From positions 267,768-331,767 of the forward strand of contig CAVROD010000004.1 of assembly GCA_963722795.1 (NCBI GenBank): 64,000 nucleotides of DNA. Reading direction: 5' to 3'. The notes below the pieces were generated by a model. It ran no database searches. It saw only the letters and a list, made by a program, of their open reading frames with translations, and was not told where the DNA came from. The DNA is from an uncultured Actinomycetes bacterium (GTDB lineage Bacteria > Actinomycetota > UBA4738 > HRBIN12). Of the stretch, positions 5,330 through 60,779 are shown one piece after another. A program made the position numbers and the translations under genes. Within the stretch, counting starts at the first letter, position 1. Every line of letters begins with the position of its first letter.

Positions 5330-5337
5330 CTCCCGGA

Positions 5338-15465: not shown

Positions 15466-15469
15466 TCGC

Positions 15470-16471
15470 ATGCTGACCGCCGATGACACCGACCGATTGA
15501 AGGGATCGCGGCCCCCCGGCCCCCCCGCCGCGATCGATGTCGTCGATGTCGCTCGCTCGTTCGGCCCGAAGCAGGTCCTGCGCGATGTCTCGCTCGCCGT
15601 CGCGCCCGGCGAGATCCATGCCGTGCTCGGCCCCAACGGCGCGGGCAAGACGACCTTGATGCGCATCGTGGTCGGCCTCACGCACCCCGACAACGGCTCG
15701 GTGTGGATCGAGGGCGAGCAGACCCAGGAGGCACGCTCACGAGACGAGCGACGCCGGGTGCAGATGGTGCCCTCGGGCGACCGAACGTTGTACCTGCGCA
15801 TCTCTGGCATCGAGAACCTGGCCTTCTTCGGACGGCTCGCCGGCATGTCCCGCAAGGAGGCGCTCGAGGCCGGCTACCGCAGCCTCGGGGCAGTGGGACT
15901 CACCGACGTCGCCAAGCAGCGTGTGCACACCTACTCCCATGGCATGCAGAAGCGCCTGTCGATCGCCCGAGCGTTGCTCACGGAACCCCCGATCCTGGTC
16001 TTCGACGAGGCGACGCACGACCTCGACCCGGCAGGCGCGCACACCATCCTCGAGCTCGTTCGCGGCGCAGCGTCGCGCGGCACCGCGGTGATCTGGACCA
16101 CCCAGCGGGTCGAGGAGATCCGGGGGTTCTGCGATCGCGTCACCCTGCTGCACGAAGGCACGATCCGGTTCTCGGGCTCGGTGCCCGAACTCATCGCGCA
16201 GGGCTCCGGGCGTCGGTACCTGGTGCAACTTCGGACCGCCGACGGACGGGATCCGTTCGCCGCTGCGATCGCGACGAACCCCGACCACGTGGTGCTCGAG
16301 CGGCTCGAGCACGGCTCCGAGGGACAGGTCCGCATGTCGCTCGGCGAGCGGGCGTCCGTCGGCGACGCGATCGCCGCGCTCACCGGTGCGGGTATCGACG
16401 TCGTGGCCTGTCACCTCGAGGGGTCGGAGATCGAGGACGCGTTCCTGCGGCTCACGGGGGAGACGACGTGA
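15470..16471 (+). CDS. ABC transporter ATP-binding protein
   Basis: Walker A GPNGAGKTT, signature-like YSHGMQKRLSIA, Walker B ILVFDEATHDLD. It starts 4 nt after the upstream stop. Confidence 0.9.
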   Translation: MLTADDTDRLKGSRPPGPPAAIDVVDVARSFGPKQVLRDVSLAVAPGEIHAVLGPNGAGKTTLMRIVVGLTHPDNGSVWIEGEQTQEARSRDERRRVQMVPSGDRTLYLRISGIENLAFFGRLAGMSRKEALEAGYRSLGAVGLTDVAKQRVHTYSHGMQKRLSIARALLTEPPILVFDEATHDLDPAGAHTILELVRGAASRGTAVIWTTQRVEEIRGFCDRVTLLHEGTIRFSGSVPELIAQGSGRRYLVQLRTADGRDPFAAAIATNPDHVVLERLEHGSEGQVRMSLGERASVGDAIAALTGAGIDVVACHLEGSEIEDAFLRLTGETT

Positions 16472-17322
16472 GCGTGCAGCCGATGCACCGTTCCCGCCTC
16501 TCCGCGATCCCCGAGGACCTCCGCAAGCTCGGTGCGTTCATCCGGCGCGACTTCCTCGTGCTCATCAGCTACCGGATCGGGTTCCTCTCGGACTGGTTCA
16601 ACCTGCTCGTGCAGGTGCTGATCCTGTACTTCGTCGGCAAGCTGATCGACCCGTCGACCCTGCCGGAGTACGGAGGGACGCAGCCGAGCTACGTCGAGTT
16701 CGCCGCAGTGGGCATCGCCGTCGGATCGCTCGTGCAGGCCAACCTCGCCAGGGTGATGGCGGCCATCAGAGGCGAGCAGCTGATGGGCACCCTCGAGATG
16801 GTGTTCCTCACCCCGACCGCGCCCACCACCGTGCTGTTGGGCTCGGTCGTCTACGACCTGATCTACGTGCCGGTGCGCACGGTGATCTTCCTCGTGCTGT
16901 TGACGGTCCTGCTCGACCTCGGGTTCTCGTTCACGGCCATCGGGCCGTTGGTGATCGTGCTGTTGGCGTTCATCCCGTTCCTGTGGGGGCTCAGCTTGAT
17001 CGGCGCCGGCAGCATGCTCACGTTCCGTCGCGGCGGCGGCATCGCGGGCATCGTCGGGCTCGTGCTCGTGGTGGCATCAGGCAGCTACTTCCCGATCACC
17101 GTGCTGCCGACATGGCTGCAGTCCTTCGCCGAGAACAACCCGGTCACCGTGGCCGTCGACGGTGTGCGAGAAGCCTTGCTCGGGACCGCGAATGCCTCCG
17201 ACGCGATCAACGACGCGCTCACGATCCTTCCCTACGCGGTCGTCTCGCTCGCCGTCGGCCTCGTCGCGCTCCGCGTCGCGCTGCGTCGTGAGCGCCAGCG
17301 GGGCACGCTCGGCACGTACTGA
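16468..17322 (+). CDS. ABC-2 type transporter permease
   Basis: GTGA overlap with the ATPase gene. Six hydrophobic segments. FIRRDFLVLISYRIGFLSDWF is a typical ABC-2 N-terminus. Confidence 0.8.
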   Translation: MSVQPMHRSRLSAIPEDLRKLGAFIRRDFLVLISYRIGFLSDWFNLLVQVLILYFVGKLIDPSTLPEYGGTQPSYVEFAAVGIAVGSLVQANLARVMAAIRGEQLMGTLEMVFLTPTAPTTVLLGSVVYDLIYVPVRTVIFLVLLTVLLDLGFSFTAIGPLVIVLLAFIPFLWGLSLIGAGSMLTFRRGGGIAGIVGLVLVVASGSYFPITVLPTWLQSFAENNPVTVAVDGVREALLGTANASDAINDALTILPYAVVSLAVGLVALRVALRRERQRGTLGTY

Positions 17323-17371
17323 GGGCCTGCGCACGACCGGGCCGCACGGCGATCAGACGAGGAGCGACCGC

Positions 17372-18226
17372 ATGTGGGAGGACACGTTCGACCGGGCGGC
17401 TCCGGACTACGACGCTCCCGAGTTGTCGTTCCTCGACGACGCGGCGGCGGCCCTGGCCGAGGCGGCCGGCATCCAGGCGGGCGAGCGGGTGCTCGACGTC
17501 GCGACCGGCACCGGCAAGCTGGCGGCCTCGGCGGCCCGCGAGGTGGGAGAACGCGGTTTCGTGGCGGGCCTCGACGTCTCGGGCGGCATGTTGCGGCAGG
17601 CGCGGCGGAACGTGGCGAGCCCGAGAGCGTCGTTCGTGCAAGCCGATGCAGCCCTGCTCCCTCTGCGTGATGGCTCGTTCGATCTCGCGCTGATGGGGTT
17701 CGGCATCTCCTTCCTTCCCGCGCCGATCGCCGCGTTCCGCGATGTGCGTCGAGTGTTGCGGGGGAACGGCCGACTCGGGCTGTCGACCACAGCCCACGAT
17801 TGCTTCGCTCCGTTGCTCGGCGTCTTCCTCGACGCGCTCGAACGAGCCGGCATGCCTCGCCCCCGTCCCTCGCATGAAGCCTGGCGATCCGTCGACCGAC
17901 CCGAGCACCTCGAGCACGTGCTGCGGCGCGCGGGGTTCGCGGAGCGCCGGGTGCGGCGCCTCGAGCTCGGGACGTTCCTGGCGGATCCCCTGGAGTTCTG
18001 GGCGCTCCTGCGAGGGAGCGCCTGGCGTGGCACGATCGACCGGCTCTCGCCGGAGCACCGAGTGCGCGTGCGGGAAGAGCTCGGTGTGGGAGCCGAGAGG
18101 CTCCGGGAGGCGCGAGGCATCCCGCTTCGGACGCCCGTCTTGATCGCGACCGCCACGCGCGGCCGAGTGCCGCTGCGCACGCTGGCCGGGCCGATCGCCG
18201 GCCGGGTGAGGAAGGTCCTCGGTTGA
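17372..18226 (+). CDS. class I SAM-dependent methyltransferase
   Basis: GAGGAG RBS then ATG at 17372. Motif I VLDVATGTGKLA; post-I LDVSGGML; DGSFDLALMGFG. Confidence 0.8.
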   Translation: MWEDTFDRAAPDYDAPELSFLDDAAAALAEAAGIQAGERVLDVATGTGKLAASAAREVGERGFVAGLDVSGGMLRQARRNVASPRASFVQADAALLPLRDGSFDLALMGFGISFLPAPIAAFRDVRRVLRGNGRLGLSTTAHDCFAPLLGVFLDALERAGMPRPRPSHEAWRSVDRPEHLEHVLRRAGFAERRVRRLELGTFLADPLEFWALLRGSAWRGTIDRLSPEHRVRVREELGVGAERLREARGIPLRTPVLIATATRGRVPLRTLAGPIAGRVRKVLG

Positions 18227-19254
18227 GGGCCGCGGGCCGCACGCTCGTGGCGGGCTGGTTCAGCTTCCCCGACACCGGGGCGACGGCGGGCGACCTGATG
18301 GCGATGCAGGTCGTCCGCAGCTGGCTCGACGGTGCGCACATCCCCTACGACGTCGCGCTCGCCCCCAGGTACGGCCACGGCGTCGAGTGGGGCTCGGCCG
18401 ATCCGCAGCGGTACTCGCACGTCGTCTTCGTCTGCGGCCCCTTCTACCGCTCCGACCTGCTTCGCAGGTTCGAGGGGAGCCGCCTCGTGGGCGTCGATCT
18501 GTCGATGGTGGACCCGATCGAGGGATGGAACCCGTTCGACCTGCTGCTCGAGCGAGACAGCACGCAAGCCTCTCGGCCGGATCTCGCGATCGCCGCTCCG
18601 GTCACGCGGGTGCCCGTGGTCGGCGTGTGTCTGTTGCCGCCGGACACCGCGAAGGTCGCGACCGATCGATACCTCGCAGCCGACGAGGCCGTCGCCCGTC
18701 TCCTCGAGCGCCATGACGTTGCGCCGGTCGTGATCGACACCGAGCTGTCGGACGGCGCGATGGACCTCCGCAGCCCTGCGGCGGTCGATTCCCTCGTCGC
18801 CCGCGCCGACGTCGTCGTGTCCACGCGCCTGCACGGGCTCGTCCTGGGTCTTCGCAACGGGGTGCCGGTGCTGGCGATCGATCCCGTTCCCGGGGGTGAG
18901 CGGGTGCGCCGCCAGGCCGAGGCGCTCGGCTGGTCGCCCGTGCTGGGGCCAGATGAGCTGGATGATGCATCGCTCGACCGAGCGTTCGAGCAGTGCCTGT
19001 CACCCGAGGCCCGTGATCGGGCCGCGGCGAGCACGAACGAGGGGCGCGACGCGGTGGCCGAGATCGGGTCCACGCTGGTCGCGGCGATCGCCGACGACGA
19101 CGGCAGTCCCGGGTGGGGAGACGGTCGCCGTCGGGGTGGGTGGACGCTTCCCGAAGGCACGACATCGTCCCTGCAGGCGGCGCCCGGGCGCCTCGGTGGC
19201 GGAGCCCGGGCCGTGCGAGCCGTGCGCAGGCGGCTCGGGAAGGGGTCGAGGTGA
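18223..19254 (+). CDS. polysaccharide pyruvyl transferase family protein
   Basis: TTG start overlaps the upstream stop. GWFSFPDTGATAGDLMA...ADVVVSTRLHGLVLGLRNGVPVLAIDP resembles the PS_pyruv_trans pattern. This is a recollection-based call. Confidence 0.65.
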   Translation: MRAAGRTLVAGWFSFPDTGATAGDLMAMQVVRSWLDGAHIPYDVALAPRYGHGVEWGSADPQRYSHVVFVCGPFYRSDLLRRFEGSRLVGVDLSMVDPIEGWNPFDLLLERDSTQASRPDLAIAAPVTRVPVVGVCLLPPDTAKVATDRYLAADEAVARLLERHDVAPVVIDTELSDGAMDLRSPAAVDSLVARADVVVSTRLHGLVLGLRNGVPVLAIDPVPGGERVRRQAEALGWSPVLGPDELDDASLDRAFEQCLSPEARDRAAASTNEGRDAVAEIGSTLVAAIADDDGSPGWGDGRRRGGWTLPEGTTSSLQAAPGRLGGGARAVRAVRRRLGKGSR

Positions 19255-19928
19255 CGCCCGGCCGTGTGGTCGTGCTCTCGACCCATCTCGACGACGGGGT
19301 GCTGTCGATCGGGGGGTGGATGCATCGGGCGGCGCGCGGTGGCTCCGCCATCACCCTCGTCACCGTGCTCGCGGGCGATCCGAACGACACGAGACCGGGA
19401 AGCGACTGGGATCGCCGTTCGGGATTCTCGACGGTCGGTGAGGCGGCCACCGCCCGACGTGCCGAAGACCGGCGAGCATGCGCGATCCTGGGGCTTCGAA
19501 CCTCGTGGCTGCCGTTCGGCGACATGCTCCAGGGCAGGGGCGCTTCGGACGAGGCTGTCTGGAACGCGCTCGTGCCGCTGCTCGCGAACGCCGACCTCGT
19601 GCTGGGGCCGGGGTTCCCGCTGAGCCATCCCGATCACGCGTGGCTCGCGACGCTGTTGCACGGGGAGGGCGGGAGCCTGCCGACGGGCTTCTATGCCGAG
19701 CAGCCGTATCGTCACCATGGCGGGGGCGCGCTGGGCGATCCGCCGAGCGCGGGGGAGGGGATCCGTTGGGAGCCGGTCCGGTTGTCCCCCCGTGAACGGT
19801 GGGCCAAGTTCCGCGCCGTGCGTGAGTACCGCTCCCAGCTCGCCTTGCTGAGCGACCGCCGGGGGCTCGCCCGGCGGCTGGGTCTCGCCCGCGGCGATGC
19901 AGGGGAGGCGCTCGCATGGGGGCCCTGA
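19251..19928 (+). CDS. PIG-L/LmbE family deacetylase
   Basis: GTGA overlap with the upstream gene. VVVLSTHLDDGVLSIGG and LSHPDHAWL are metal-binding motifs of the family. Confidence 0.75.
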   Translation: MTPGRVVVLSTHLDDGVLSIGGWMHRAARGGSAITLVTVLAGDPNDTRPGSDWDRRSGFSTVGEAATARRAEDRRACAILGLRTSWLPFGDMLQGRGASDEAVWNALVPLLANADLVLGPGFPLSHPDHAWLATLLHGEGGSLPTGFYAEQPYRHHGGGALGDPPSAGEGIRWEPVRLSPRERWAKFRAVREYRSQLALLSDRRGLARRLGLARGDAGEALAWGP

Positions 19929-20620
19929 GCTCGGTCCGCCGCCGGGTCCGCCGCTTCAGGCGCTTGGTCGCGCGGCGACCGCCCGTGGGCCTGGTGCGCT
20001 TCGGCAGCCTGCGCAGGACGACGCCGATCGGCCATGAGTGGGGTGAGGATCGGGGTCTGCCCGTCGACCGGGTTTACATCGACCGATTCATGAACGCCCA
20101 TCGCTCCGACATGCGCGGGCACGTGCTCGAGGTTCAGTACCCGGTGTACACCGGCCGCTTCGGCTCGGCGGTCACGGAGACCGACGTGCTCGACATCCGT
20201 GCGGACAACCCCGCGGCCACGATCGTGGCCGACCTCACCGCGGCCGCCATGGTCCCCGATGACACGTTCGACTGCGTGGTGCTGACACAGACGCTGCACC
20301 TGATCCACGACCACGTGGCGGCGGTTCGAGAGGTACACCGCATGCTGCGCCCTGGCGGGGTGCTGCTGGCGACGGTCCCGGGCATCTCGCCCGTCGTCGA
20401 CACCACCGCGCGGTGGTGCTACACGCCGTTGTCCGTTCGTGAGATCTTCGCCGGCGTGTTCGGGTCCGAGCACATCGATGTCGAGTCGTTCGGCAACGTG
20501 CTCACCGCGACGGCGTTCCTCTACCAGCTGGGGGCGCGGGAACTGCGGGCGGCGGACTATGCCGCGCGCGACCCCGCGTACCCCATGGTGATCGCGGTGC
20601 GGGCGGAGAAAGGGTCGTGA
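19916..20620 (+). CDS. class I SAM-dependent methyltransferase
   Basis: 234 aa. FDCVVLTQTLHLIHD...MLRPGGVLLATVPG (Methyltransf_11-like). It overlaps the upstream gene by 13 nt. Confidence 0.8.
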   Translation: MGALSSVRRRVRRFRRLVARRPPVGLVRFGSLRRTTPIGHEWGEDRGLPVDRVYIDRFMNAHRSDMRGHVLEVQYPVYTGRFGSAVTETDVLDIRADNPAATIVADLTAAAMVPDDTFDCVVLTQTLHLIHDHVAAVREVHRMLRPGGVLLATVPGISPVVDTTARWCYTPLSVREIFAGVFGSEHIDVESFGNVLTATAFLYQLGARELRAADYAARDPAYPMVIAVRAEKGS

Positions 20621-21616
20621 CCGCGATCAGCGTCGTCGTGCCGACGAGGAACCGAGCCCAGGTGCTGGGGTCCTCGCTCGCCTCGATCGCAGCGCAGCGA
20701 GCGGGCGCCGACTTCGAGGTGATCGTCGTCGACAACGCCTCCTCCGACGGCACGACGGATCTGCTCCGTGCATGGACCGCTCGGGACGACCGGTTCCGCC
20801 TCGTACGGGAAGAGCGGCTCGGGCGGAGCTGCGCGATGAACGCCGGGATCTCGGTCGCCGCAGGTTCCCTGCTGTTGTTCACCGACGACGACGTGGAGCT
20901 CGCTCCCGGCTGGGTGGAATCGTTCCGTCGGTTCTTCGCGTCGCACGAAGGCCCTCGTCATCGCCGGAGGGGCGATCGAGCCCGCGCCCCCCGACCTGTC
21001 GTCGTGGCCCTCGTGGTTGTCGCCGGCGTCGCGTTCGGCCGACGGCCCGGGCCTCGACCACGGCGAGGATGAGCGAGCGCTGGCGTCCCACGAGTTCCTG
21101 TGGGGCGCGAGCATGGCGGTGCCCGCCGAGGTCTTCGAACGACTGGGCACCTGGAACGAGACGGTCGGCCGACGAGGAGACCATCGGGGTACCTTCGAGG
21201 ACATCGACTTCCAGCAGCGCCTGCGCGCGGCGGGCGGCTCGGTCTGGTACCTGCCCGACGCTCGGCTGCGCCACCGCGTGCCCACGGCCGAGGTGACGCC
21301 CCGGCGCATCCTCCTGCGGGCGTACCGCAACGGCCGCAACGACGCATGGTTCCCGCCGGGCGGCGAGGCACGTCCGCCGCGGGCGTCGTGGGTGCGGGGG
21401 AGGCCTTCGCGCGGTGGATGGCCGTGACGATCGCCTTCCGTGCTCGCCCCGATGCCGCCGCCTTCGATCGTGCCCGCGATGCCGCCCGGCACGCCGGTCG
21501 GGCCGGCGAGCGGGTGGCGATCGGCCGCCATCGAGCTCGCGCCTTCGTCCAGCGGCTCGCGTGGGCTTTCGCGAGCGCGGATCCTGAGGGTCGCGCCCGA
21601 TCGACCGTCGCGTTAG
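20617..21616 (+). pseudogene. family 2 glycosyltransferase (at least 2 frame breaks; 3' end uncertain)
   Basis: ISVVVPTRNRAQVL...EVIVVDNASSDGT...LLLFTDDDV. It continues in other frames (WGASMAVPAEVFERLGTWNE...FEDIDFQQRL...WYLPDARLRHR). Confidence 0.65.
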
Positions 21617-22561
21617 GGCAGGCAGGTCGCCACGATGAGCTCGACCAGGTCGTCGAGGTCATCGAAGCGAAGATCGCGGTGCAGGTTCCAGGAGGGGACG
21701 CTCGCCGCCAGCCCCGCGACACCGTGGAAGCATCGCGATCGGTCCTCGTGCGTCGGCAGGTGCAGGCTGAGCGCCCACAGGTCGGGGATCGTGTCGGCCG
21801 GCTGCCGGCGCTCGAGCACCGGGGAGCCCTCGCCTCGGCGCAGGAACACGATGCCTGCGATCGGCACCGGGTCGCCGGTGCCTCGCCGCGGTGGCGTCGA
21901 GGGCGACGTGCACCCGGTCGGGCTCCTCGGCGATGACCTCCACGTCGGGCACGTCGATCGAGCCGTGCACGTCGGGGCGGAGCCGGAGCAACGCGGGTCC
22001 GGGGAAGATCGAGGGATGCGATGTCGGCCGGATGCGGGCCAGATCCTCCGAGAGCATGCGGTAGCCCGCCCGATGGAAGGCCGCCGCGGTCGTGGTCTTG
22101 CCGTGGCGCCCCGGAGCGGGGAAGAGGATCGCCCGTCCGCCTACCTCGACGGCGGCGCTATGCAGCGAGATGTCGCCGTGGGCGAGATAGCTCGTCGCCG
22201 TCGGGATGCCCCACAGCCGCTGCTCGCGCCTGACCGAGTGCCCTCGATCGGAGAGCCCGATCGAGGGTACCGACGGATCGGCGACGAACCAGCCTTCGCG
22301 GTCGGTCCAGAACGCGAACCGTCCGTCGTCGGCGTAGAGCGAGGCACGGAAGTCCCGTCCTGCTCGCAGCGGCCACTCCAGCATCGCGTCGCCCACCGGA
22401 GCCGGATCGGCGTCGAGCTGGTGCACGTCGAGGGGATCCGTGATGCCTCCGAGGTCACGCAGGAACCGCCACGCGATCGGTGAGCGCACGGCATAGCCGT
22501 GGATCGCGCCCAGCGGGGCGATGCGCTCGTCGTCGGTGCTCTCGGCCCCGGTCGCGGTCAC
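21613..22561 (-). pseudogene. HPr kinase-related P-loop kinase (one frame break near 21870)
   Basis: LHSAAVEVGGRAILFPAPGRHGKTTTAAAFHRAGYRMLSEDL resembles HprK C-terminal domains. GTG start overlaps the oxygenase stop (GTGA at 22558-22561). The tail IAGIVFLRRGEGSPVLERR... lies in the 21613..21867 frame. Confidence 0.7.
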
Positions 22562-23268
22562 CGAGCGCGGTGGTACCAGCCACCGATCGAGACACGGGCC
22601 GTGCCCTGCGACGCACTCTCGACCGGCAAGACCTCGTGCACCGATTGAGCCTGCACGTCGAACATCACGATCGAGTTGAAGTCGGCATGTACCTGGTGGG
22701 TGGTGCCGGCGCCGTCGATCATCGCGAGCGTGCCGCCGTACTCCGGCCGCCAATCCGGGTTCAGGTAGAGCACGAGCGCGAGCCGGCGGTCCTTGTTGTC
22801 GTCGGTGTGATGCCGCAGGAAGTCGCCTGTTCGCATCGAGTGCACGCCGAAGTCGTCGCTCGCCGTGAGCGGCAACCCGCTCACCGCGGCGAAGAACGAG
22901 CGGAAGGCGTCGGTCTGCAGCGCCTGTCGGAACTGCAGGTACGTCAGGGCGTTCGGGCTGAACTGGTGCTCGGCGGGCACCCCGTGCAGCCTGGAGAGCC
23001 GGAAGAACCGGTCGTCCTCGGTCGCACCCTCGTACTGCGACTCGGAGACGCCCCCCTCGACCGAGAAGATGCCGTACTCGGTCTCGTAGTCGGCCTCGTC
23101 GAGCAGGAACCGTGCGAGGTGTTCGGCCTTCTCCTGCACGAGCAGGTCGTGCACGACGAGCATGCGCGCAGGATGGGAGTCGAGCGATGTTCGATACGAC
23201 GCGAGTGCGTCGTCGTCGAGGTGCTGGGGCTGGAACCAGGGCTCGAGGGCGTTGCGATCGATCGTCAT
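22558..23268 (-). CDS. 2OG-Fe(II) oxygenase, prolyl-4-hydroxylase-like
   Basis: Starts MTIDRNALEPW. Facial triad candidates FLRHHTDDN (HxD) and SVHEVLPV. RLALVLYLNPDW...GGTL is typical of 2OG-FeII_Oxy_3. Confidence 0.75.
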   Translation of the reverse strand: MTIDRNALEPWFQPQHLDDDALASYRTSLDSHPARMLVVHDLLVQEKAEHLARFLLDEADYETEYGIFSVEGGVSESQYEGATEDDRFFRLSRLHGVPAEHQFSPNALTYLQFRQALQTDAFRSFFAAVSGLPLTASDDFGVHSMRTGDFLRHHTDDNKDRRLALVLYLNPDWRPEYGGTLAMIDGAGTTHQVHADFNSIVMFDVQAQSVHEVLPVESASQGTARVSIGGWYHRAR

Positions 23269-23403
23269 GGTTCGCCGATGGTAGTCGACCGATGGGGGCG
23301 AGACATCCGTCCGATGGTCACTCCTCGGGGGCCGTGTGGCACTGCTAGGATGCGCCACACCCGCGAGGCTGCGAGGCAGTTCCCGAGAGGAGATGGGCAC
23401 GCG

Positions 23404-23706
23404 ATGATCGATGATGCCACCGTCGTCCGGCGCAACCCGACCGTCGAGTACAGGAGCTTGGGCGCCGACGACGGGGGAGGCGTGCTGCTGCACGTCGGCA
23501 CCGGCGCCTATCACGGGTTGAACGAGGTCGGCGCCGCCGTCTGGGCCCTGCTCGAGCCCGAGCAGGGAGTCGCCTTCGGCTCGATCGTCGAAGGGGTGCG
23601 CGGCCAGGTCGAGGAGGCGCCGGAGAACCTCGCCGAGGAGATCGGCGAGTTCCTCGAGGACCTCTCGACCCGCGACCTTGTGAGCCTGGGCGCGACGGAA
23701 GGCTGA
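23404..23706 (+). CDS. PqqD-family protein (RiPP recognition element, lasso B1-like)
   Basis: 100 aa: MIDDATVVRRNPTVEYRSLGADDGGGVLLHVGTGAYHGLNEVGAAVWALLEP... is the canonical PqqD pattern. An alternative ATG exists at 23350. Confidence 0.8.
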   Translation: MIDDATVVRRNPTVEYRSLGADDGGGVLLHVGTGAYHGLNEVGAAVWALLEPEQGVAFGSIVEGVRGQVEEAPENLAEEIGEFLEDLSTRDLVSLGATEG

Positions 23707-23721
23707 GCGCCGCCGCCGACC

Positions 23722-24159
23722 CTACGAGTATCGAGCGATCTGCTCGTGCCGCCCCTTGCCGGGCGGTGGTCCCACGTCGACCCCGCCGATCTCGATCCAT
23801 GCATGCGCGTCCTTGTCGCGGGGCTCGCGCGGCAGGCCGATCACCAGCTCGACCCCGTCGCCCTGCTCCCGCAGGAGCCGGAACAGCACCAGCGACGTGA
23901 ACAGGCATCTGGCCTTGAGCGGGCCGAATCGCAGCACCATGTACACGAGCTGTCCGAGGCGTCGTGGGTGCGCGTAGAGGGTGCGACCGGGGCGGGCCGG
24001 CGCTCGCAACGTGGCCACCACGGCGGGGAGCGGTCGCGTGCGAACAGCGCGAGCCACCAACACGTATGACGCGAGGATGTGCGGCGCGAGCCTGATCTTG
24101 TCCAGCAGACGCAGTGGGCGGGGCACTCCGCGGAGCTCGGGCTGGGGGCGTGTGCTCAT
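23722..24159 (-). CDS. lasso peptide B2-like transglutaminase-fold cysteine protease
   Basis: 145 aa from MSTRPQPEL. KARCLFTSLVLFRLLREQG...DKDAHAWIEIGGVDV gives the Cys/His catalytic context typical of B2 proteins. Confidence 0.8.
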   Translation of the reverse strand: MSTRPQPELRGVPRPLRLLDKIRLAPHILASYVLVARAVRTRPLPAVVATLRAPARPGRTLYAHPRRLGQLVYMVLRFGPLKARCLFTSLVLFRLLREQGDGVELVIGLPREPRDKDAHAWIEIGGVDVGPPPGKGRHEQIARYS

Positions 24160-24208
24160 GGGCGGGTGGAGGTCACCTGGCGCCTCAGAGCTCGTTGCCC
24201 TCGCACGC

Positions 24209-24241
24209 AAGAACGCCCGCGCCGAGGGCGCGGGCGTTCTT
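24209..24241 (-). terminator. perfect hairpin between the precursor and B2 genes (attenuator/terminator candidate)
   Basis: aagaacgcccgcgcc-gag-ggcgcgggcgttctt: 15-bp stem, 3-nt loop, 27 nt downstream of the precursor stop. There is no clear U tract. Confidence 0.5.
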
Positions 24242-24268
24242 GTCGAAACGCGTTTCGATCAGAAGCGG

Positions 24269-24415
24269 TTAGCTTCCGACTTCCTCGTGCGACAGCTCGC
24301 CGTACTCGTCCGGCTTCGCAGGCGGCTTGCCGCCCTTCTGCTGTCCACCAGGGGTGGTGAACGTGTGGTCGGAGATAGGACCGAAGTCCGTCACCTGGGG
24401 CTTCTCGTACTGCAT
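24269..24415 (-). CDS. RiPP precursor peptide with lasso-type leader (48 aa; below the ORF-track cutoff)
   Basis: Manual translation: MQYEKPQVTDFGPISDHTFTTPGGQQKGGKPPAKPDEYGELSHEEVGS*. GGAGG lies 6 nt upstream of the ATG. The leader fits YxxPxL/V...G.....T-x. It sits between the NTase and B2 genes on the same strand. Confidence 0.7.
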   Translation of the reverse strand: MQYEKPQVTDFGPISDHTFTTPGGQQKGGKPPAKPDEYGELSHEEVGS

Positions 24416-24547
24416 ACCCAACCTCCATGGTCGTCGGGGTCGGCCGACTATAACCCAGAATGACCCACACTGTGTAGGCCGAATGGGCTAATCCTGCAAG
24501 AAATTTCACCTGCGTCGGATGACCCGGCGGGCACATGCATCCGGGCG

Positions 24548-25570
24548 TCATCTCCCGACTTTCCCGACTTTCCGGGCTTTGCGGGCTGCTCGGATCGCTG
24601 GTATGAGTTTCCATGCAACCCAGAACGGGCGAGCGATGTAGGCGAGCGCAAGGCCGAGTCTACCTCGTCGGGCGAGGGGCGACCACGCGCGCATGTGTGC
24701 GGGCGGTGGCCACACCTTGCGGGCCGCCACTCGAAGTCCTTCGGTGGGCGTCGCGTCATGCATCATCCAGTCCACCCCCACCGCGAGCGGCGGCGGTTGC
24801 TGCAGCCTGAGCGCGACCTCCGGGCTCATCCGATCGGTGAGCTCCAGCTCGTCTGCCAAGAGCCCTCCGGCCTCGATGCGGCGAAGGCCCGCGGCGAACG
24901 CTTCCAGGGCGTCGAGCTGGGTCGCGAGCTCGGCCGTGTGGCGCCAATCCTCGACGGGGATCCTGGCGACGGCCAGCTCCAAGTCCCTGATGGCCTTGCC
25001 CCCGCGCCCTTCGCGCTTGCCGCCGTCCTTCGCGGCGTGCAGCACCAGCACCAAGGCCCGAGCGACCGGGTCCAAGACCGGCACCTGACCGCCGGCGAGG
25101 GGCATGGTTTGTGTCCGAGCCTCGAGTGTGTCCCACACCCGGTCGGGGGGCGCCTTGATACCGAGGAACGTGGTGTGCAGGTCGACGGACACGTTGTCGG
25201 CGCGCCAGAGTGGGAAGCCGTAACGCGGTCGGTCACGCACGACGGATTCGAACCCGCGGCGCACGAATCCGGCGCCGGCCAGGACCGATTCCGCCCCCGC
25301 CGCATCCCCGGGAGGGATCAGCAAGTCGCAGTCGGCGTAGGTGCGCTCATCGGGGTCGTCGTACAGCCACCGGGCATGGCTCGCCCCTTTGAGCAGGATG
25401 CTCGGGATACCGGCGTCGCGCAGGCGGGGGATGACCTCGACCACCGCTCGGTCGACCGACATCGATCGGACCGCCGCCCGCATCGCCGCGGGGATCGGCG
25501 TGGTGACGTCCGACCCGAGGTCGGTCACGACCGGTCGGACGCTGGTGTGCTCGCTTCGGTCTCTCGCCAT
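24548..25570 (-). CDS. nucleotidyltransferase family protein (NTP_transf_5-like)
   Basis: 340 aa. VEVIPRLRDAGIPSILLKGASHARWLYDDPDERTYADCDLLIPP matches my recollection of the uncharacterised-nucleotidyltransferase family seen in lasso/kinase clusters. Confidence 0.7.
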   Translation of the reverse strand: MARDRSEHTSVRPVVTDLGSDVTTPIPAAMRAAVRSMSVDRAVVEVIPRLRDAGIPSILLKGASHARWLYDDPDERTYADCDLLIPPGDAAGAESVLAGAGFVRRGFESVVRDRPRYGFPLWRADNVSVDLHTTFLGIKAPPDRVWDTLEARTQTMPLAGGQVPVLDPVARALVLVLHAAKDGGKREGRGGKAIRDLELAVARIPVEDWRHTAELATQLDALEAFAAGLRRIEAGGLLADELELTDRMSPEVALRLQQPPPLAVGVDWMMHDATPTEGLRVAARKVWPPPAHMRAWSPLARRGRLGLALAYIARPFWVAWKLIPAIRAARKARKVGKVGR

Positions 25571-25771: not shown

Positions 25772-27385
25772 ATGAGGGCACCCATCAGGCAACTGATGAC
25801 GTGGGGACTGGCGCTGGTCTTGATCAGCAGCGGGCTGGCCTGGGGCGCGACCGGCGATCCGGTCGGAACGGCCCTGTACCGGGTGAACGCGGGTGGACCC
25901 GCGCTCGCCGGCGGCGCATGGGCTGCCGACGACTCGCCTGAGGTGTCCGCGCTCACGAACGAGGAGCGCACGAGGATCGCATCCACCGATCATGCGATCG
26001 ACATGTCGCACCCGTCGGTGCCGGCCGGCACCCCTGCGGCGCTCTTCTCGACGCAGCGCTGGGATCCCCGCGAGCAACCGAGGATGGCCTGGCGGTTCCG
26101 GGTTGAGCCCGGCCAGTACGAGGTGCGGCTCTATTTCGCCGAGATCTCGCCCGACGCCCAAGGTGTCGGGTTGCGGTCGTTCCATGTGGCGATCGAAGGA
26201 TCGGTGCTGCTTCGCGACTACGACGTCTTCCGCGTCGCCGGCGGCGGCTACCGAGGTGTGATGGAGTCGTTCGCGGTCGACTCTGATGAACGACTCCGGA
26301 TCGCGTTCCGTCACCAGCGAGGTATGCCCGTGGTGAACGGCATCGAGGTGCTGCCGTTCGGCTCGACGCCCGATCCGACCGTGGACCCCGATCCGACCGT
26401 GGACCCCGATCCGACCGTGGACCCCGATCCTGAGCCCGATCCGGACGGCACGCCTATCGGAACCGCGTGCGGGGGCGTCAACGTGGCTTCGAGCACGAAT
26501 CTGCAGGCGGCGGTCGATGCGAACCCGACCGGCACGACGTTCTGCCTCCAGGGGACCTACCGGCTCTCCAAGCCTGTCAAGCCGAAGGCGGGGCAGTCGT
26601 TCGTGGGGCCGGCCGTGCTCCTCGGAGCCGGCGCAGCCTCGGCGTTCGACCTCAACAACGGCACGAGTGGCGTCGCCGGTGTCTCGTTCGTCCATCTCGA
26701 CGTCTCCGGCTTCACCGAACGAGGCATCGACTGCTGGGTCGGGACCCGCGTCATCGGCGGGCGATACCATCACAACGACCGGAACGGCATCGGCTGTGGT
26801 CTGGACTACGAGCGCGGCCAGATCCTGATCGTCGGGGTCGAGATCGACCACAACGGTTCGGAGGACGATCTCGGCCAGGGCAGCGGCGGCCTGAAGATCG
26901 CCCGTCTCGGTCCCGACGGCCTGACCGTTCGATACTCGAACATCCATGACAACCTCGGCAGCGGTGTCTGGTGCGACGTGCAGTGCATCGGTACCTTCCT
27001 GGTCGAGGACAACCTGATCGCGCGGAACTCGCGCAAGGGCGTGCACTACGAGAAGTCGGGTGCAACCGACGAGTACATCGAGGGCAGGGTCGTCGAAGGC
27101 CAGGCGGTGATCCGTCGCAACGTCGTCACCGGCAACGGGTGGGAAGGTCGCGATCACGCAGCCGACGGCGGCATCGGCGGTGTGAGCTCGGTGAACATGC
27201 TGATCGAGGGCAACATCACGTCGGGCAACCCCCGCGGCGGGATCTTCCTTCGCACCGACGGGCGTCTGTCGGGCGACAAGCACGGCTGGCCGATGGAGGC
27301 GATCGTGCGCAACAACCAGACCCTCGACGGCATCCGCGGGTGCGTGGAGGAGCCGGGGGTCACCTGCATCGGCAACCTCCTCTGA
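25772..27385 (+). CDS. secreted malectin-domain / right-handed beta-helix protein
   Basis: Signal MTWGLALVLISSGLAWG. Malectin-like YRVNAGG...QRWDP...YEVRLYFAEI...VNGIEVL. (PTVDPD)n linker. Repetitive beta-helix turns (NGIGCG, IHDNLGSGVWCD, IARNSRKGVHYE, VTGNGWEG, EGNITSGN). Confidence 0.8.
   Translation: MRAPIRQLMTWGLALVLISSGLAWGATGDPVGTALYRVNAGGPALAGGAWAADDSPEVSALTNEERTRIASTDHAIDMSHPSVPAGTPAALFSTQRWDPREQPRMAWRFRVEPGQYEVRLYFAEISPDAQGVGLRSFHVAIEGSVLLRDYDVFRVAGGGYRGVMESFAVDSDERLRIAFRHQRGMPVVNGIEVLPFGSTPDPTVDPDPTVDPDPTVDPDPEPDPDGTPIGTACGGVNVASSTNLQAAVDANPTGTTFCLQGTYRLSKPVKPKAGQSFVGPAVLLGAGAASAFDLNNGTSGVAGVSFVHLDVSGFTERGIDCWVGTRVIGGRYHHNDRNGIGCGLDYERGQILIVGVEIDHNGSEDDLGQGSGGLKIARLGPDGLTVRYSNIHDNLGSGVWCDVQCIGTFLVEDNLIARNSRKGVHYEKSGATDEYIEGRVVEGQAVIRRNVVTGNGWEGRDHAADGGIGGVSSVNMLIEGNITSGNPRGGIFLRTDGRLSGDKHGWPMEAIVRNNQTLDGIRGCVEEPGVTCIGNLL
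26369..26446 (+). repeat. 18-bp tandem repeat (3 perfect units plus degenerate tail) encoding the PTVDPD linker
   Basis: cccgatccgaccgtggac x3 at 26369-26422, followed by cccgatcctgagcccgatccggac. Confidence 0.8.
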
Positions 27386-27428: not shown

Positions 27429-28274
27429 TCAGGGTTCGTAGCCGTAGGCCCGCAACCGCTCGTCATTCACTCGGGCGCTGAAGCGCTCGGTGAGCTCATC
27501 GTCGAACCGCTCGCGCCAGCCGCCGATCGCTCCCTTGCGGAAGGTCGGGCTGGCGTCAGAGAAGAGCTCTCCGCAGACCCGCTCGACGAGCGCGGTGTCG
27601 ACGTCGAGTCCCAGGTGACGGAAGATGCGCTCGACCGCGTCGCGCTGACGAGCGGCGTCGCCGCCGCCGTTCGGTCCGATCAGGTCCTCGAAACGGACCG
27701 TCTCGGCCGGGCCGCGGAGCCAGCCGACGTACCGCTCGAGCCGGTCCCCGATCGACGGGAGGCCGGTGGCAGGGTCGCCCTCGATCGCCACGAGCACCCG
27801 GCCTCGCAGGTCGGTCTGGCCGGCGAAGGCTTGGTGGAACGGGTGATCGGGCTTCTGCACCGCGTAATGCGCCTGTGAGAGCACGATGTCGCGTGGGTCG
27901 CGCGTGAGGAACAGCGCTCGCACCCCGCCGGCCTCGATCACCGCCGGATAGTCGGGCTCGAAGGGCAGGTGCGCCACGACGACCTGGCCGGGAGCGAGGG
28001 TGTCGAGCAGCCCCGAGAGTCCCCGCCATCGCTCGAGCGCCTCGGGCCAGACGGTGGCGAGCATCTTGCGATGCAGCCGCGGATGCAGGCACACAGCACG
28101 CTCGAGCAGATGCGTGCCGGCCTTCGGGAGCGAGATCGACAGGACCCGCGGCGCCCCGCGATCGGTGAGCCGGTGGGCGAGCCTGGACGGGGTGAGGCCG
28201 AACCGCTGCAGTGTCCAGGTGTTCAGTGGCAGACTCGCCGCGCGCGCTCGGATCGAGGAGCCGAAGCCGCTCAC
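27429..28274 (-). CDS. sulfotransferase domain protein (PKxGT type)
   Basis: GTG start overlaps the upstream stop (GTGA at 28271-28274). 5'-PSB-like SLPKAGTHLL. LFLTRDPRDIVLSQ (3'-PB region). C-terminal FRKGAIGGWRERF. Confidence 0.8.
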   Translation of the reverse strand: MSGFGSSIRARAASLPLNTWTLQRFGLTPSRLAHRLTDRGAPRVLSISLPKAGTHLLERAVCLHPRLHRKMLATVWPEALERWRGLSGLLDTLAPGQVVVAHLPFEPDYPAVIEAGGVRALFLTRDPRDIVLSQAHYAVQKPDHPFHQAFAGQTDLRGRVLVAIEGDPATGLPSIGDRLERYVGWLRGPAETVRFEDLIGPNGGGDAARQRDAVERIFRHLGLDVDTALVERVCGELFSDASPTFRKGAIGGWRERFDDELTERFSARVNDERLRAYGYEP

Positions 28275-29203
28275 GAGGTGGCCTTCCACCGATAGCCGTA
28301 GCGACCCAGCCAGGGGGCCGTCAGGGTGGACGCGATGAGCTGCGTGCTGCGGGGCGCCCGGCGCCAGGCGTCGTCGAGTCGGATCTCGACGTCGCCCTCG
28401 GAGAAGCGGCTGCGGTTGCCCGAGACGGCGTGGCTGACGGCGAGCCGCACGGTGCGATCGTCGACGAAAGGCAGTCGGTCGGACGGAGCGCCCACGAACC
28501 GACAGATGGCTTCGACGACCTGTTTCGGGTGCTCGGCGAAGTCCTCGTAGCGCAGCAGCATGGTGCGGGCGGCCGGCAACCGGCGCCGCACGGAGTCGCC
28601 GAGCACGTTGGTCGAGACCCAACGTCCCGACGTGCGCACCGGCCCGGGCGAATACTCTCGCGGACCATGCGCATCCTCGCCCGCCGGCCGCCCGCGTTCC
28701 CAGGAGAACGCGACGCCGCGGGGGTCGCGCACGAGGTGCAGGATCGAAAGGTCGATCTCGTCGAGTCGTTCCAAGATCGCGGCGGCCGCGGGGGTCTTCG
28801 ACGAATCGACGATCACGTCGGCGCCGGAAGCCCGTCGGACCTCGGGGTAGAGACGACGAAGCAGGTCGACGTAGCGGTCGAGGTCGGCTCGTCCGGTCAC
28901 CGGCCATCGGTCGGTGCGCAGTAGCCGCGGGGTGTGGAGCATGCGCGCCTGAGCGAGCTGCCACCGGTACACCTCGTTCGGGTCGTCGGGGCTGCCGACC
29001 TCGGTCAGCACGGCCGACCAGAAGGGGCACGACGCGATCTCCTGGCCGCATCCGCACCGGAACCCACGCGCCATGCCGCGCCACAGCATGTGGATCTCGC
29101 CGGCTGCGAAGAACCCCGGGGCGCTGCCGAGCACGTTCTCGAGGATCGTCGATCCGCACCGTGTGGTGCCCAGGATGAAGAGCACCTTCACTCGATCGCT
29201 CAT
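28271..29203 (-). CDS. sulfotransferase family protein (RSGST-type P-loop with CGCG-x7-C motif), paralogue A
   Basis: Starts MSDRVKVLFILGTTRCGSTILENVLG. FRCGCGQEIASCPFW. HLVRDPRGVAFS. Ends PWLGRYGY. Confidence 0.8.
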   Translation of the reverse strand: MSDRVKVLFILGTTRCGSTILENVLGSAPGFFAAGEIHMLWRGMARGFRCGCGQEIASCPFWSAVLTEVGSPDDPNEVYRWQLAQARMLHTPRLLRTDRWPVTGRADLDRYVDLLRRLYPEVRRASGADVIVDSSKTPAAAAILERLDEIDLSILHLVRDPRGVAFSWERGRPAGEDAHGPREYSPGPVRTSGRWVSTNVLGDSVRRRLPAARTMLLRYEDFAEHPKQVVEAICRFVGAPSDRLPFVDDRTVRLAVSHAVSGNRSRFSEGDVEIRLDDAWRRAPRSTQLIASTLTAPWLGRYGYRWKATS

Positions 29204-29331
29204 GTCGACGTCGAACTCCCGGTTCTCGTGGGGGGCAGGCGAGCGGTCGGGCGACACGCGTCCGGATCCGCCGGGTACCGACGATAGCATCGGCACGGAC
29301 GCCCACGTCCTGACCTCGTAGCATCGGCGAC

Positions 29332-30309
29332 ATGGTGGGACGCCCCGAGGGACACGCCGAGCCATATCCCTCGCGGGTCAAGGTCGTCGCGATCGTCGGC
29401 TACACGCGAAGTGGCAGCACGCTGCTCGACTCGATCCTCGGCCAGATCCCAGGCTTCTTCTCCACCGGAGAGCTGCACTACATCTGGGAACGCGGGCTGA
29501 TCGATCGGAGGCGATGTGGGTGCGGGGTGCCGATCCCCGAGTGCGAGGTCTGGTCGGACGTGCTCGAGCGGGCGTTCGATGACTCGCCTCCGGATCCTCG
29601 CCAGGTGATGCGGTGGCAGGACGGGGCGGTGCGTACCCGGCACACCTGGGGTCTGCTCAAAGGCGGCGTGCGCCCGGTGGACCGAGCCGCCCTCGAGGCG
29701 TACCTGGCGGTTGCCGGCCCCCTCTACGGTGCGATCGCCGGTTCCACGGGGGCGCGCGTGATCGTGGACTCGTCCAAGCGTGCCTCCGATGGCGCCGTGC
29801 TTCGCCTGCTGGACGAGATCGATCCCTACGTGGTGCACCTCGTCCGCGATCCCCGGGCGGTGATCCACTCCTGGCGTCGTCGGAAGGTCGAGCTCGACAG
29901 CGACCAGCCGAGCGAGATGCCCCGTCAGGGCCGGGCCCGCACCGCGGCAGAATGGTCGCAGTCCAACATCGCAGCCGACGCGCTGCGCAAGCGGATGGGT
30001 CCGGGTCGGTCGATGCTGCTGCGGTACGAAGATCTGATGCGCGCTCCGAGGACCGCGGTGGAGGCGATCGCCCGCATGGTCGGCGAGGGCGACGCCGCGC
30101 TCCCGTTCGACGACGAGCACAGCGTGCGGCTCGGACCCAATCACACCGTGGGCGGGAATCCCGCCAGGTTCTCGGCCGGAGCGACCGAGTTGCGCGCCGA
30201 CGACGAGTGGCAGCGGCGGATGCCTGCCGCGGCGCGCATCGGGGCCACCGCCCTCACCGCGCCGCTGCTCCCACGCTACGGCTATCCCGTGATCGGGGCG
30301 GGCCGATGA
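29332..30309 (+). CDS. sulfotransferase family protein (RSGST-type with CGCG-x7-C motif), paralogue B
   Basis: VKVVAIVGYTRSGSTLLDSILG. RRCGCGVPIPECEVW. HLVRDPRAVIHS. PLLPRYGY. Divergent from paralogue A across a 128-bp gap. Confidence 0.8.
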   Translation: MVGRPEGHAEPYPSRVKVVAIVGYTRSGSTLLDSILGQIPGFFSTGELHYIWERGLIDRRRCGCGVPIPECEVWSDVLERAFDDSPPDPRQVMRWQDGAVRTRHTWGLLKGGVRPVDRAALEAYLAVAGPLYGAIAGSTGARVIVDSSKRASDGAVLRLLDEIDPYVVHLVRDPRAVIHSWRRRKVELDSDQPSEMPRQGRARTAAEWSQSNIAADALRKRMGPGRSMLLRYEDLMRAPRTAVEAIARMVGEGDAALPFDDEHSVRLGPNHTVGGNPARFSAGATELRADDEWQRRMPAAARIGATALTAPLLPRYGYPVIGAGR

Positions 30310-48463: not shown

Positions 48464-48536
48464 GCCGGAGTAGCTCAGTCGGCAGAGCGCCTCCATGGTA
48501 AGGAGGAGGTCAGGGGTTCGATTCCCCTCTCCGGCT
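48464..48536 (+). tRNA. tRNA-Thr (anticodon GGT)
   Basis: Hand-folded cloverleaf: acceptor GCCGGAG/CTCCGGC, D stem GCTC/GAGC, anticodon stem CCTCC/GGAGG with loop AT-GGT-AA, T arm AGGGG-TTCGATT-CCCCT. Confidence 0.9.
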
Positions 48537-49722: not shown

Positions 49723-49809
49723 GGCGCCAAACGTACCGGTACCTCGCCCAGCGGTCGGTAGCCGGCGGCATCTCGGTACCGTGAACCCCCAACGAGACGG
49801 GAGGACGGT

Positions 49810-54125: not shown

Positions 54126-54200
54126 GGCGGCGTAGCTCAGAGGTAGAGCAAGCGGCTCATAATCGCTGTGTCGGTGGTTCGAGTCCACCCGCCGCTACCA
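54126..54200 (+). tRNA. tRNA-Met (anticodon CAT), CCA encoded
   Basis: Acceptor GGCGGCG/CGCCGCT (G1-U72 wobble), D stem GCTC/GAGC, anticodon loop CT-CAT-AA, T arm GGTGG-TTCGAGT-CCACC, 3' ACCA. Confidence 0.9.
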
Positions 54201-60690: not shown

Positions 60691-60764
60691 AGGCGCGTAG
60701 CTCAACTTGGTAGAGCACCGGTCTCCAAAACCGGGGGTTGGGGGTTCAAGTCCCTCCGCGCCTG
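60691..60764 (+). tRNA. tRNA-Trp (anticodon CCA)
   Basis: Acceptor AGGCGCG/CGCGCCT, D stem GCTC/GAGC, anticodon stem CCGGT/ACCGG with loop CT-CCA-AA, T arm GGGGG-TTCAAGT-CCCTC. Confidence 0.9.
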
Positions 60765-60779
60765 CAAGGGGAACATCGC

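Follow-up and report, generated by a model that had tools for sequence, protein, structure and literature searches.

Comparison with described lasso peptide systems

Lasso peptide clusters that bear kinase, nucleotidyltransferase (NTase) and sulfotransferase genes are known from Bacillota and Proteobacteria (PMC8498205). PsmK phosphorylates its precursor, and PsmN is needed if the phosphate of the phosphoserine is to receive one or two hexoses (PMC6993621); BsfK of Bradymonas sediminis, aided by the B1 protein, phosphorylates an internal residue, Ser3 (PMC10368454). The window, that is, the whole 64-kb stretch of contig CAVROD010000004.1 analysed here, contains a related set of genes. An earlier note had described six genes at 21613-25570 as a maturation module for a lasso-type peptide that is ribosomally synthesised and modified post-translationally (RiPP), with no cyclase next to them. 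All six genes are present at these positions, and they probably form one half of a single lasso-type cluster of about 13.5 kb (12071-25570), which also takes in sulfotransferase genes downstream. The other half would consist of an Asn-synthetase-like candidate cyclase (13675-15465) and a DrrAB-type exporter, and the whole is rather probably a member of the kinase/nucleotidyltransferase branch, that of paeninodin, pseudomycoidin and Bsf. The assignment to this branch, made already in the earlier note, is supported, as are the profile assignments of the B1, B2, NTase and oxygenase products; the kinase is homologous to BsfK.

Owing to a GC content of about 69%, long spurious open reading frames (ORFs) are common in the window; reading frames were picked by the GC content of third codon positions, profile matches and homologues. 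The related contigs and loci compared with the window are labelled L001-L035. Some bear the taxonomic labels Actinomycetota and Gaiellaceae, which make an actinobacterial context of the cluster plausible; others are labelled Acidobacteriota. When the precursor was used as a query against a collection of genome contigs, two loci only were retrieved, and the genome of the window is apparently outside that collection. A literature search, within the library available, for the precursor family, for lasso clusters linked to exopolysaccharide (EPS) genes and for glycosylated or hydroxyproline-containing lasso peptides returned only the known kinase/NTase papers, which is absence of evidence only.

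The psm and pade clusters, whose products are phosphorylated or phospho-glycosylated lasso peptides, comprise the same set of genes as the window: a precursor (A), split B1 and B2 proteins, an Asn-synthetase-like cyclase (C, in the window a candidate), an HPr-kinase-like kinase (K), an NTase of the PF14907 type (N) and an ABC exporter, and some clusters of this type also carry a sulfotransferase gene (PMC8498205, PMC6993621). They belong to Bacillota, whereas the loci of the window family bear the labels Actinomycetota or Acidobacteriota. In the window family the leader has an extra conserved segment of eight residues, xTPGGxxK, after its canonical-looking end, and the precursors lack a conserved C-terminal Ser and have a conserved internal Ser instead. 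The window family adds a conserved prolyl-hydroxylase-like oxygenase and a family 2 glycosyltransferase (GT2), in places with a deacetylase. The exporter of the window is a split DrrAB-type pump in contrast to the fused ABC exporter of the psm and pade clusters, and the cluster stands in an operon with bacterial tyrosine kinase (BY-kinase)/Wzz and glycan-tailoring genes, the A and C genes being 8.8 kb apart within the same cluster.

The Bsf cluster of B. sediminis (BsfA/B1/B2/C/D/K/N) shares with the window a homologous kinase and B1 and an NTase gene, and its kinase acts on an internal Ser. Unlike the window cluster, it contains no oxygenase, GT2 or EPS-type genes. The HPr-rel-A system of TIGRFAMs (TIGR04352 and PqqD_rel_X, TIGR04353) resembles the window in its association with polysaccharide genes, being linked to proteobacterial exopolysaccharide loci, and the PqqD-family protein of the window weakly matches TIGR04353. 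The equivalog cutoffs of this system are not reached by the kinase (46 against 200 bits) or the PqqD protein (19 against 35 bits), and since both scores are far below them, the window system is not a member. We know of no precursor peptide described for HPr-rel-A. A 2-oxoglutarate (2OG)/Fe(II) oxygenase within a lasso cluster, as here, is known from hydroxylated lasso peptides of the canucin type (PMC8498205). The canucin enzyme hydroxylates the beta-carbon of a C-terminal Asp, whereas that of the window has a GT2 as its partner and resembles prolyl hydroxylases most closely.

Candidate cyclase, exporter and gene order

The gene at 13675-15465 (plus strand) codes for a protein of 596 aa with Asn_synthase and GATase_7 domains, the candidate lasso macrolactam cyclase. 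It is followed on the same strand by the genes for a DrrA-like ABC transporter ATPase, a putative exporter subunit (15470-16471; ABC_tran, 4e-32; best NCBIfam match drrA), and for a DrrB-like ABC-2 permease (16468-17322; ABC2_membrane), whose start overlaps the ATPase stop (GTGA). An ABC ATPase gene follows the cyclase gene in relatives as well, and L031 has the same ATPase/permease pair.

The candidate cyclase has 938 homologues at E <= 1e-20. In at least nine diverged loci (L012, L013, L015, L018, L019, L020, L022-24, L026 and L031) the gene directly 3' of that for the precursor encodes an orthologue 43-53% identical to it (47% in L013), and every locus retrieved via the cyclase family also has a precursor of the same family. 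This synteny is the decisive evidence by which the Asn-synthetase-like protein is put forward as the candidate cyclase of the cluster. Relatives are typically arranged as [Wzz]-NTase-A-C-ABC-(permease)-PqqD, with B2 and K on the opposite strand and an oxygenase-GT2 pair (Oxy-GT2) nearby. At 40-55% identity, A, B1, B2, C, ABC, K, N, Oxy and GT2 are found again from locus to locus. In L012, genes for a methyltransferase, a pyruvyl transferase, a PIG-L protein and a GT2 lie between ABC and K, as they do in the window. Judged by these gene orders, in the window and its close relatives L002-L011 the NTase-precursor pair has been relocated to the opposite end of the cluster and turned round, which is why no cyclase adjoins the precursor gene. 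The earlier observation of a missing cyclase thus holds for the interval 21613-25570 but not for the cluster, and before a cyclase is called missing both the wider locus and the synteny of relatives should be inspected.

The module could be imagined as truly devoid of a cyclase, making a linear peptide that is phosphorylated, nucleotidylated and hydroxylated, with the distant Asn-synthase belonging to glycan biosynthesis. Besides the lack of a cyclase gene inside 21613-25570, such a reading would draw on the occurrence of Asn-synthase paralogues in EPS loci, on the match of the candidate cyclase to an XrtA/PEP-CTERM amidotransferase model (1.9e-27), and on the acidobacterial-type contigs L014, L027 and L030, which are arranged N-B1-B2-ABC-A-Oxy with no C within 5-8.6 kb; these contigs are short, and the missing C is therefore uninformative. 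It is contradicted by the position of orthologues of the same Asn-synthase directly after the precursor gene in the diverged loci and by the constant presence of a family precursor in loci found through that Asn-synthase. Furthermore, the candidate cyclase begins VSSLG, without the Cys2 nucleophile, and this glutaminase Cys is found in none of the 106 full-length members of the family, while the SGGxDS PP-loop is present in 105 of them. The family therefore cannot be a glutamine-dependent amidotransferase, and a role of this kind in EPS synthesis was rejected. A module without a cyclase is highly improbable; the synteny of precursor and cyclase genes in relatives led to its rejection. An AlphaFold2 model of the candidate cyclase (predicted local distance difference test, pLDDT, 91) agrees in fold with TsnB9, beta-lactam synthetase, carbapenam synthetase and AsnB.

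Two loci, L014 (a metagenome-assembled genome of Vicinamibacterales) and L030 (a soil contig), have an acidobacterial-type order, NTase-PqqD-B2-fused 617-aa ABC exporter-A-Oxy-(polysaccharide deacetylase)-GT2, with neither a cyclase nor a kinase gene within about 8 kb. Their cores contain two Cys in the motif G-C-x3-C-H-L-D.

Precursor gene

The precursor peptide A, MQYEKPQVTDFGPISDHTFTTPGGQQKGGKPPAKPDEYGELSHEEVGS, of 48 aa is encoded on the minus strand at 24269-24415. A ribosome-binding site, GGAGG (24422-24426), lies six bases 5' of its ATG, and a promoter-like site, TACACA-18-TATAGT (24447-24476, minus), was found further 5' by a consensus scan (1 observed against 0.2 expected; a pattern match only). 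Directly 3' of the stop codon, in the interval between the precursor and B2 genes, RNA folding predicts a GC-rich hairpin of 16 bp (24206-24245, minus; -39.4 kcal/mol, z = -5.1, none of 200 shuffles as stable), possibly an attenuator or a terminator without a U-tract.

The 48-codon ORF is a genuine conserved gene under purifying selection. An ORF with an identical product is present on 30 public contigs, and the products of other relatives are 68-85% identical. Differences between orthologues fall mostly on third codon positions, and synonymous codon changes exceed non-synonymous ones against four of five orthologues (16 against 7 for L018) and equal them against the fifth (9 and 9 for L012). 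The lasso-type leader that the earlier note had read in this ORF, and the retention of the ORF in syntenic loci, were confirmed: the canonical pattern YxxPxLxxxGxxxxxTx is present in 124 of 127 family peptides and is represented in the window by Y3-P6-V8-G12-T18-F19. The NF033521 lasso_leader model gave a weak match only, below its cutoff (best E 0.006).

A profile of the precursor searched against 1.84 billion representative proteins gave 102 matches at E <= 1e-3, about 100 of them peptides of 40-90 residues. One, P0192, a protein of 2285 aa with 17 matches to the profile, was discarded as a spurious match to a eukaryotic EGF-repeat protein. With some 100 clusters of precursors (at 50% identity) and over 900 homologues of the cyclase, this is a large uncharacterised lasso-type family in uncultured soil Actinomycetota and Acidobacteriota.

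Leader, cleavage site and ring

In lasso precursors YxxPxL occupies positions -17 to -12 relative to the cleavage site (PMC10368454), and by this rule the core of the window peptide is expected to start at T20 (HTF^T, where ^ marks the cut). Cleavage there would leave Asp or Glu at core positions 7-9 in 21 of 124 family members, and in the window peptide there is none. The family consensus after HT[FYW] is x[T/N]PGxGxK, about eight variable residues, and D-x-[F/H/Y]-[G/C/N]-E-x-S, with Lys27, Pro22 and Gly23 near-invariant. Of 81 peptides, 53 have a distance of 9 between the conserved Lys (K27) and the conserved Asp (D36), and 68 have one of 8-10. Where the segment before the Lys is lengthened to 11-15 residues, the distance is still 8-12; its standard deviation (sd) is 1.4, against 2.1 for the distance from the N-terminus to the Asp. 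Gly directly follows the Lys in 60 of the 81 peptides (74%), and Val or Ile directly precedes it in 33. Cleavage after Lys27 would place Gly at position 1 and Asp at position 9 of the core. A junction with a residue other than Thr at -2 has been validated in BsfA, which is cut at I-R^G with Ile at that position (PMC10368454), and the [V/I]-K^G of the window family resembles it.

The conserved spacing of Lys and Asp and this likeness to BsfA favour an extended leader. In the preferred though unproven model the leader would have 27 residues, made up of the canonical 19 and the conserved spacer xTPGGxxK, and would be cut at [V/I/Q]-K27^G28. This suggests a core of 21 residues, GGKPPAKPDEYGELSHEEVGS, with a Gly1-Asp9 ring (Gly28-Asp36). 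Paeninodin and pseudomycoidin likewise have nine-residue rings closed at Asp9.

Several features of the precursor weigh against this junction. It would shift YxxPxL to -25 to -20, in contrast to BsfA, where the same type of junction goes with YxxPxL at -17 to -12 and a Gly1-Asp8 ring. H-T-F, with Thr at -2, stands exactly at the normal end of a leader, and position -2 of the K^G junction varies in the family, with Gln in the window peptide. The core of paeninodin starts with A-G-P-G, and its resemblance to T-T-P-G means that the core could start at T20.

A different product would follow from cleavage at HTF^T, namely a RiPP derived from the lasso type but not a lasso, in which TTPGGxxK is kept as a site of hydroxylation and glycosylation (X-Pro-Gly, X-Lys-Gly) and the Asn-synthetase-like enzyme forms an unusual amide, either between Lys27 N-epsilon and Asp36 (side chain to side chain, a 10-residue ring) or between the N-terminus and Asp36 (a 17-residue ring). 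The exact fit of the leader to the canonical pattern, with a core start at T20, the rarity of Asp or Glu at positions 7-9 after this cut and the near-invariance of Lys27, Pro22 and Gly23 all speak for it. So do the affinity of the oxygenase to prolyl hydroxylases, Pro22 being the only Pro conserved family-wide outside the YxxP motif, and the adjacency of oxygenase and GT2 genes in five loci, which recalls hydroxylation followed by glycosylation. Yet the Gly after the Lys, the basic residue at P1 and the Val or Ile at P2 look like a cleavage junction, and the distance from the N-terminus to the Asp is more variable than that from the Lys. We know of no Asn-synthetase-type RiPP cyclase that uses a Lys side chain. 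On balance a product of this kind seems rather unlikely, and a lasso ring behind an extended leader is preferred.

The usual rule for the leader-core junction appears to be broken by this precursor family, and the standard scoring of genome mining would therefore mis-predict or miss the core. Finding the B2 cut site and the ring-closing amine would probe the rigidity of the YxxPxL (-17) and Thr (-2) rules, and a heavily glycosylated or sulfated class of RiPPs could emerge from such work.

The precursors differ at their C-termini (GS, GGS, GGTP, AGT, SP, AS), that of the window peptide ending in Ser, whereas an internal Ser (S42), six residues past the conserved Asp, is much better conserved. 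This weakens the earlier expectation that the C-terminal Ser is phosphorylated.

Putative leader-processing and tailoring enzymes

The PqqD-family RiPP recognition element (RRE) protein, B1, is encoded on the plus strand (23404-23706), convergent with the B2 gene and divergent from that of the oxygenase. It matches PF05402 (6e-12, 46 bits against a cutoff of 23.4) and is 28% identical to BsfB1 over 72 aa (E 7e-6); matches to the lasso-specific NCBIfam PqqD models are weak and below their cutoffs. The lasso leader peptidase B2 (23722-24210, minus), a Cys protease of the transglutaminase fold (Transglut_core3, 1e-14), scores 47.4 bits on the lasso B2 model NF033537, above its cutoff of 33, and carries the Cys in KARCLF and the His in DAHAW. 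Its likely start gives a protein of 145 aa (23722-24159). The B2 proteins of the acidobacterial-type loci L014 and L030 are closest to the PadeB2 group.

The NTP_transf_5 nucleotidyltransferase-fold protein, a PsmN-like NTase (24548-25570, minus; PF14907, 4.5e-28, 98.9 bits against a cutoff of 31.2), has a readable G[AS]S…DxD motif, and its gene adjoins the precursor gene in most related loci. Immediately 5' of the precursor gene, L015 (4542-5930) and L031 (8197-9570) encode proteins of 457-462 aa; that of L015 has, by eye, an NTase-like N-terminal region and a C-terminal S-adenosylmethionine (SAM)-dependent methyltransferase, and for that of L031 methyltransferase Pfam matches only were recorded.

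The P-loop kinase related to HPr kinase (21613-22561, minus), which has the motif APGRHGKTT and is frameshifted, has no match in Pfam. It matches TIGR04352 (HprK_rel_A) at 5e-11, below the model cutoff, and the same model is the best family match of all six orthologues tested. The profile of the kinase family matches the HPr kinase/phosphorylase 1ko7 (E 0.006), and the kinase is 29% identical over 110 aa to the validated lasso kinase BsfK (E 1e-6). Of the family assignments proposed earlier, PqqD, Transglut_core3, PF14907 and 2OG-FeII_Oxy_3 were thus recovered, whereas the kinase lacks a Pfam match, and TIGR04352, like the lasso leader model, stays below cutoff.

The prolyl-hydroxylase-like 2OG/Fe(II) oxygenase (22558-23268, minus; 2OG-FeII_Oxy_3/4, E about 1e-17 to 1e-19) is coupled to the kinase, its TGA stop overlapping the GTG start of the latter (GTGA), as had been noted before. 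The translation shows the HxD…H…R residues. Among solved structures, OGFOD1 (3.6e-14), PPHD of Pseudomonas and Tpa1 of yeast, all prolyl hydroxylases, are the nearest. The oxygenase and the GT2 are common across the family at about 50% identity and usually encoded side by side (adjacent in L021, L022, L026, L030 and L033). Because they recur across related loci, the oxygenase is ancestral to the family and not an acquisition of this cluster, as the earlier note had it.

In L033 (1740-9826; JGI Ga0208454_1000025) the Oxy-GT2 pair is followed, 5' of the cyclase and kinase genes, by a run of membrane glycosyltransferases of the GT-C type (GT87, two PMT-like and one Alg6/Alg8-like), a hint that glycosylation in this lineage is extracytoplasmic and depends on polyprenol sugars.

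Glycan-tailoring genes

The first gene of the plus-strand operon (12071-13678) codes for a Wzz/BY-kinase-like protein, a chain-length determinant with a P-loop ATPase (Pfam Wzz, AAA_31 and CbiA; TIGR01007, 116 bits, above cutoff), and its homologues adjoin NTase/A in L012, L015, L018, L031 and the P0007 contig. Downstream of the exporter genes, on the same strand, are encoded a methyltransferase dependent on SAM (17372-18226; Methyltransf_25/11; homologues in L012 and L021), a polysaccharide pyruvyl transferase-like protein (18223-19254; PS_pyruv_trans, 3.5e-9; homologues in L002, L012 and L021), a PIG-L family de-N-acetylase (19251-19928; PIG-L, 7e-12; present in L002 and L012), a second methyltransferase (19916-20620; Methyltransf_11) and the GT2 (20617-21616), which is split by two indels, with Glycos_transf_2 matched on both ORF pieces. 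A deacetylase is recurrent: where the window has PIG-L, L030 has a Polysacc_deac_1 protein in the corresponding position.

From Wzz through GT2 most genes are joined by start/stop overlaps of 4 nt or more. The module was earlier seen as merely lying between glycan genes; on the evidence of their translational coupling to the cyclase and exporter genes and their recurrence in relatives, these genes are part of the cluster. Kinase/NTase tailoring, studied in three systems, would here be joined to a conserved hydroxylase, glycosyltransferase and deacetylase in an operon with polysaccharide-type genes, and pyruvyl- and sulfotransferases would join the tailoring set in the lineage of the window.

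Next to the NTase gene, on the side away from the precursor gene, a secreted protein of 537 aa with malectin and right-handed beta-helix domains (25772-27385, plus; Pfam Malectin, Beta_helix) is encoded, a homologue of which (44% identity) adjoins B2/NTase in L031. A Pro/Asp/Thr-rich tandem linker, PDPTVDPDPTVDPDPTVDPDPEPDPDG (26360-26470), lies between its two domains. Four sulfotransferase genes follow (27429-28292, minus; 28271-29365, minus; 29332-30309, plus; 31103-32077, minus; Sulfotransfer_1/3). They are conserved only in the closest relatives, L003-L005, and L031 has an adenosine 5'-phosphosulfate (APS) kinase instead.

Proposed pathway

Threading, the position of the ring and all the tailoring steps are deduced from characterised homologues. 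The PqqD-family protein B1 would bind the YEKPQV leader and B2 would cut the leader off, upon which the cyclase could adenylate Asp36 and close the macrolactam. The kinase would phosphorylate a Ser, the conserved Ser42 being a likelier target than the variable C-terminus, and the NTase-fold enzyme may attach a sugar to the phosphate. The oxygenase would hydroxylate a conserved residue; GT2, the deacetylase and the methyl-, pyruvyl- and sulfotransferases may elaborate a glycan, and the ABC-2 pump would export the product.

Several points tell against such a lasso pathway. The candidate cyclase reaches 144 bits on NF033535 against a cutoff of 525, and its 152 bits on asn_synth_AEB, a generic AsnB model, are also below the cutoff; the fold search of the PDB and the profile search with this protein brought up only AsnB, beta-lactam synthetase, carbapenam synthetase and TsnB9, with no deposited lasso cyclase for comparison. 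In a BLAST comparison with 15 reference B2 proteins (supplement of PMC10368454), the B2 of the window is equally distant from the kinase-type and the canonical B2s. The kinase and GT2 genes are interrupted in the window.

A bolder and quite improbable interpretation is that the product is a hybrid of a RiPP and a glycan: a small ring-closed peptide (possibly closed via the invariant Lys side chain), hydroxylated at collagen-like X-Pro-Gly/X-Lys-Gly and/or phosphorylated, and carrying a pyruvylated, methylated and sulfated glycan made by the GT2, the deacetylase and the machinery of the Wzy/BY-kinase type encoded in the same operon. If true, it would represent a bacterial, ribosomally templated 'mini-proteoglycan' and would explain the link of HprK/PqqD cassettes to exopolysaccharide loci.

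Frameshifts in the kinase and GT2 genes

The kinase frame is broken by one extra base (+1) near 21898 and continues in the frame of the ORF 21613-21867. This base is absent from L002, L006, L010 and L011 (about 90% identical), in which the kinase is intact at 314 aa, and from L035 (97% identical), which reads through the site. The GT2 gene contains two further 1-bp indels, one near 20954 and one near 21371, both of them unpaired, and its product is intact at 332 aa in the relatives L002 and L010. The three indels lie within about 1 kb, and the surrounding genes are intact. Either an assembly error or strain-specific decay would account for them.

If the pathway were decaying in the genome of the window, the kinase and GT2 genes would be true pseudogenes, the rearrangement a loss of function, and there would be no mature product. 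The three unpaired indels are absent from five relatives that are 90-97% identical, and all other genes of the cluster read intact, so that errors are not evenly spread over the region. This integrity speaks at the same time against decay, as it covers the genes for the precursor, B1, B2, NTase, oxygenase, C and ABC, and the rearranged order is common to many contigs with intact kinase and GT2 genes (L002-L011). A local assembly error is equally likely, since related long contigs such as L012 are riddled with frameshifts; the source contig is 908 kb long. Decay of the whole pathway is judged very unlikely.

In L001, a Logan contig 99.7% identical to the window, one base fewer is present near 22508, at the 5' end of the kinase gene, and the gene caller starts the kinase later. 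This adds to the signs that near-identical assemblies differ in this gene by indel noise or true variation.

Other features of the window

Past the sulfotransferases the glycan locus continues with a GT4/GT1 glycosyltransferase (32074-34290), a Wzy_C membrane protein similar to O-antigen ligases and polymerases (34514-36124) and a GT2 (35884-37089). Two Kelch-repeat beta-propeller proteins of 291 and 475 aa, then ORFs without a family match, are encoded on the minus strand at 39818-42580. The region 45341-46222 codes for a further beta-helix protein.

Upstream of the cluster, the minus strand at 3893-5566 encodes a protein of 557 aa similar to peptide dehydrogenases of the SagB family (TIGR03605, 86.5 bits against a cutoff of 78.4; Pfam Nitroreductase match). 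Another RiPP-type locus, unrelated to the cluster and about 7 kb away from it, may be present here.

Three tRNA genes are located on the plus strand: tRNA-Thr(GGT) at 48464-48537, tRNA-Met(CAT) at 54126-54200 and tRNA-Trp(CCA) at 60691-60765. The first of these overlaps the annotated end of the long ORF of a YibE/F-like membrane protein on the minus strand (48475-50415).

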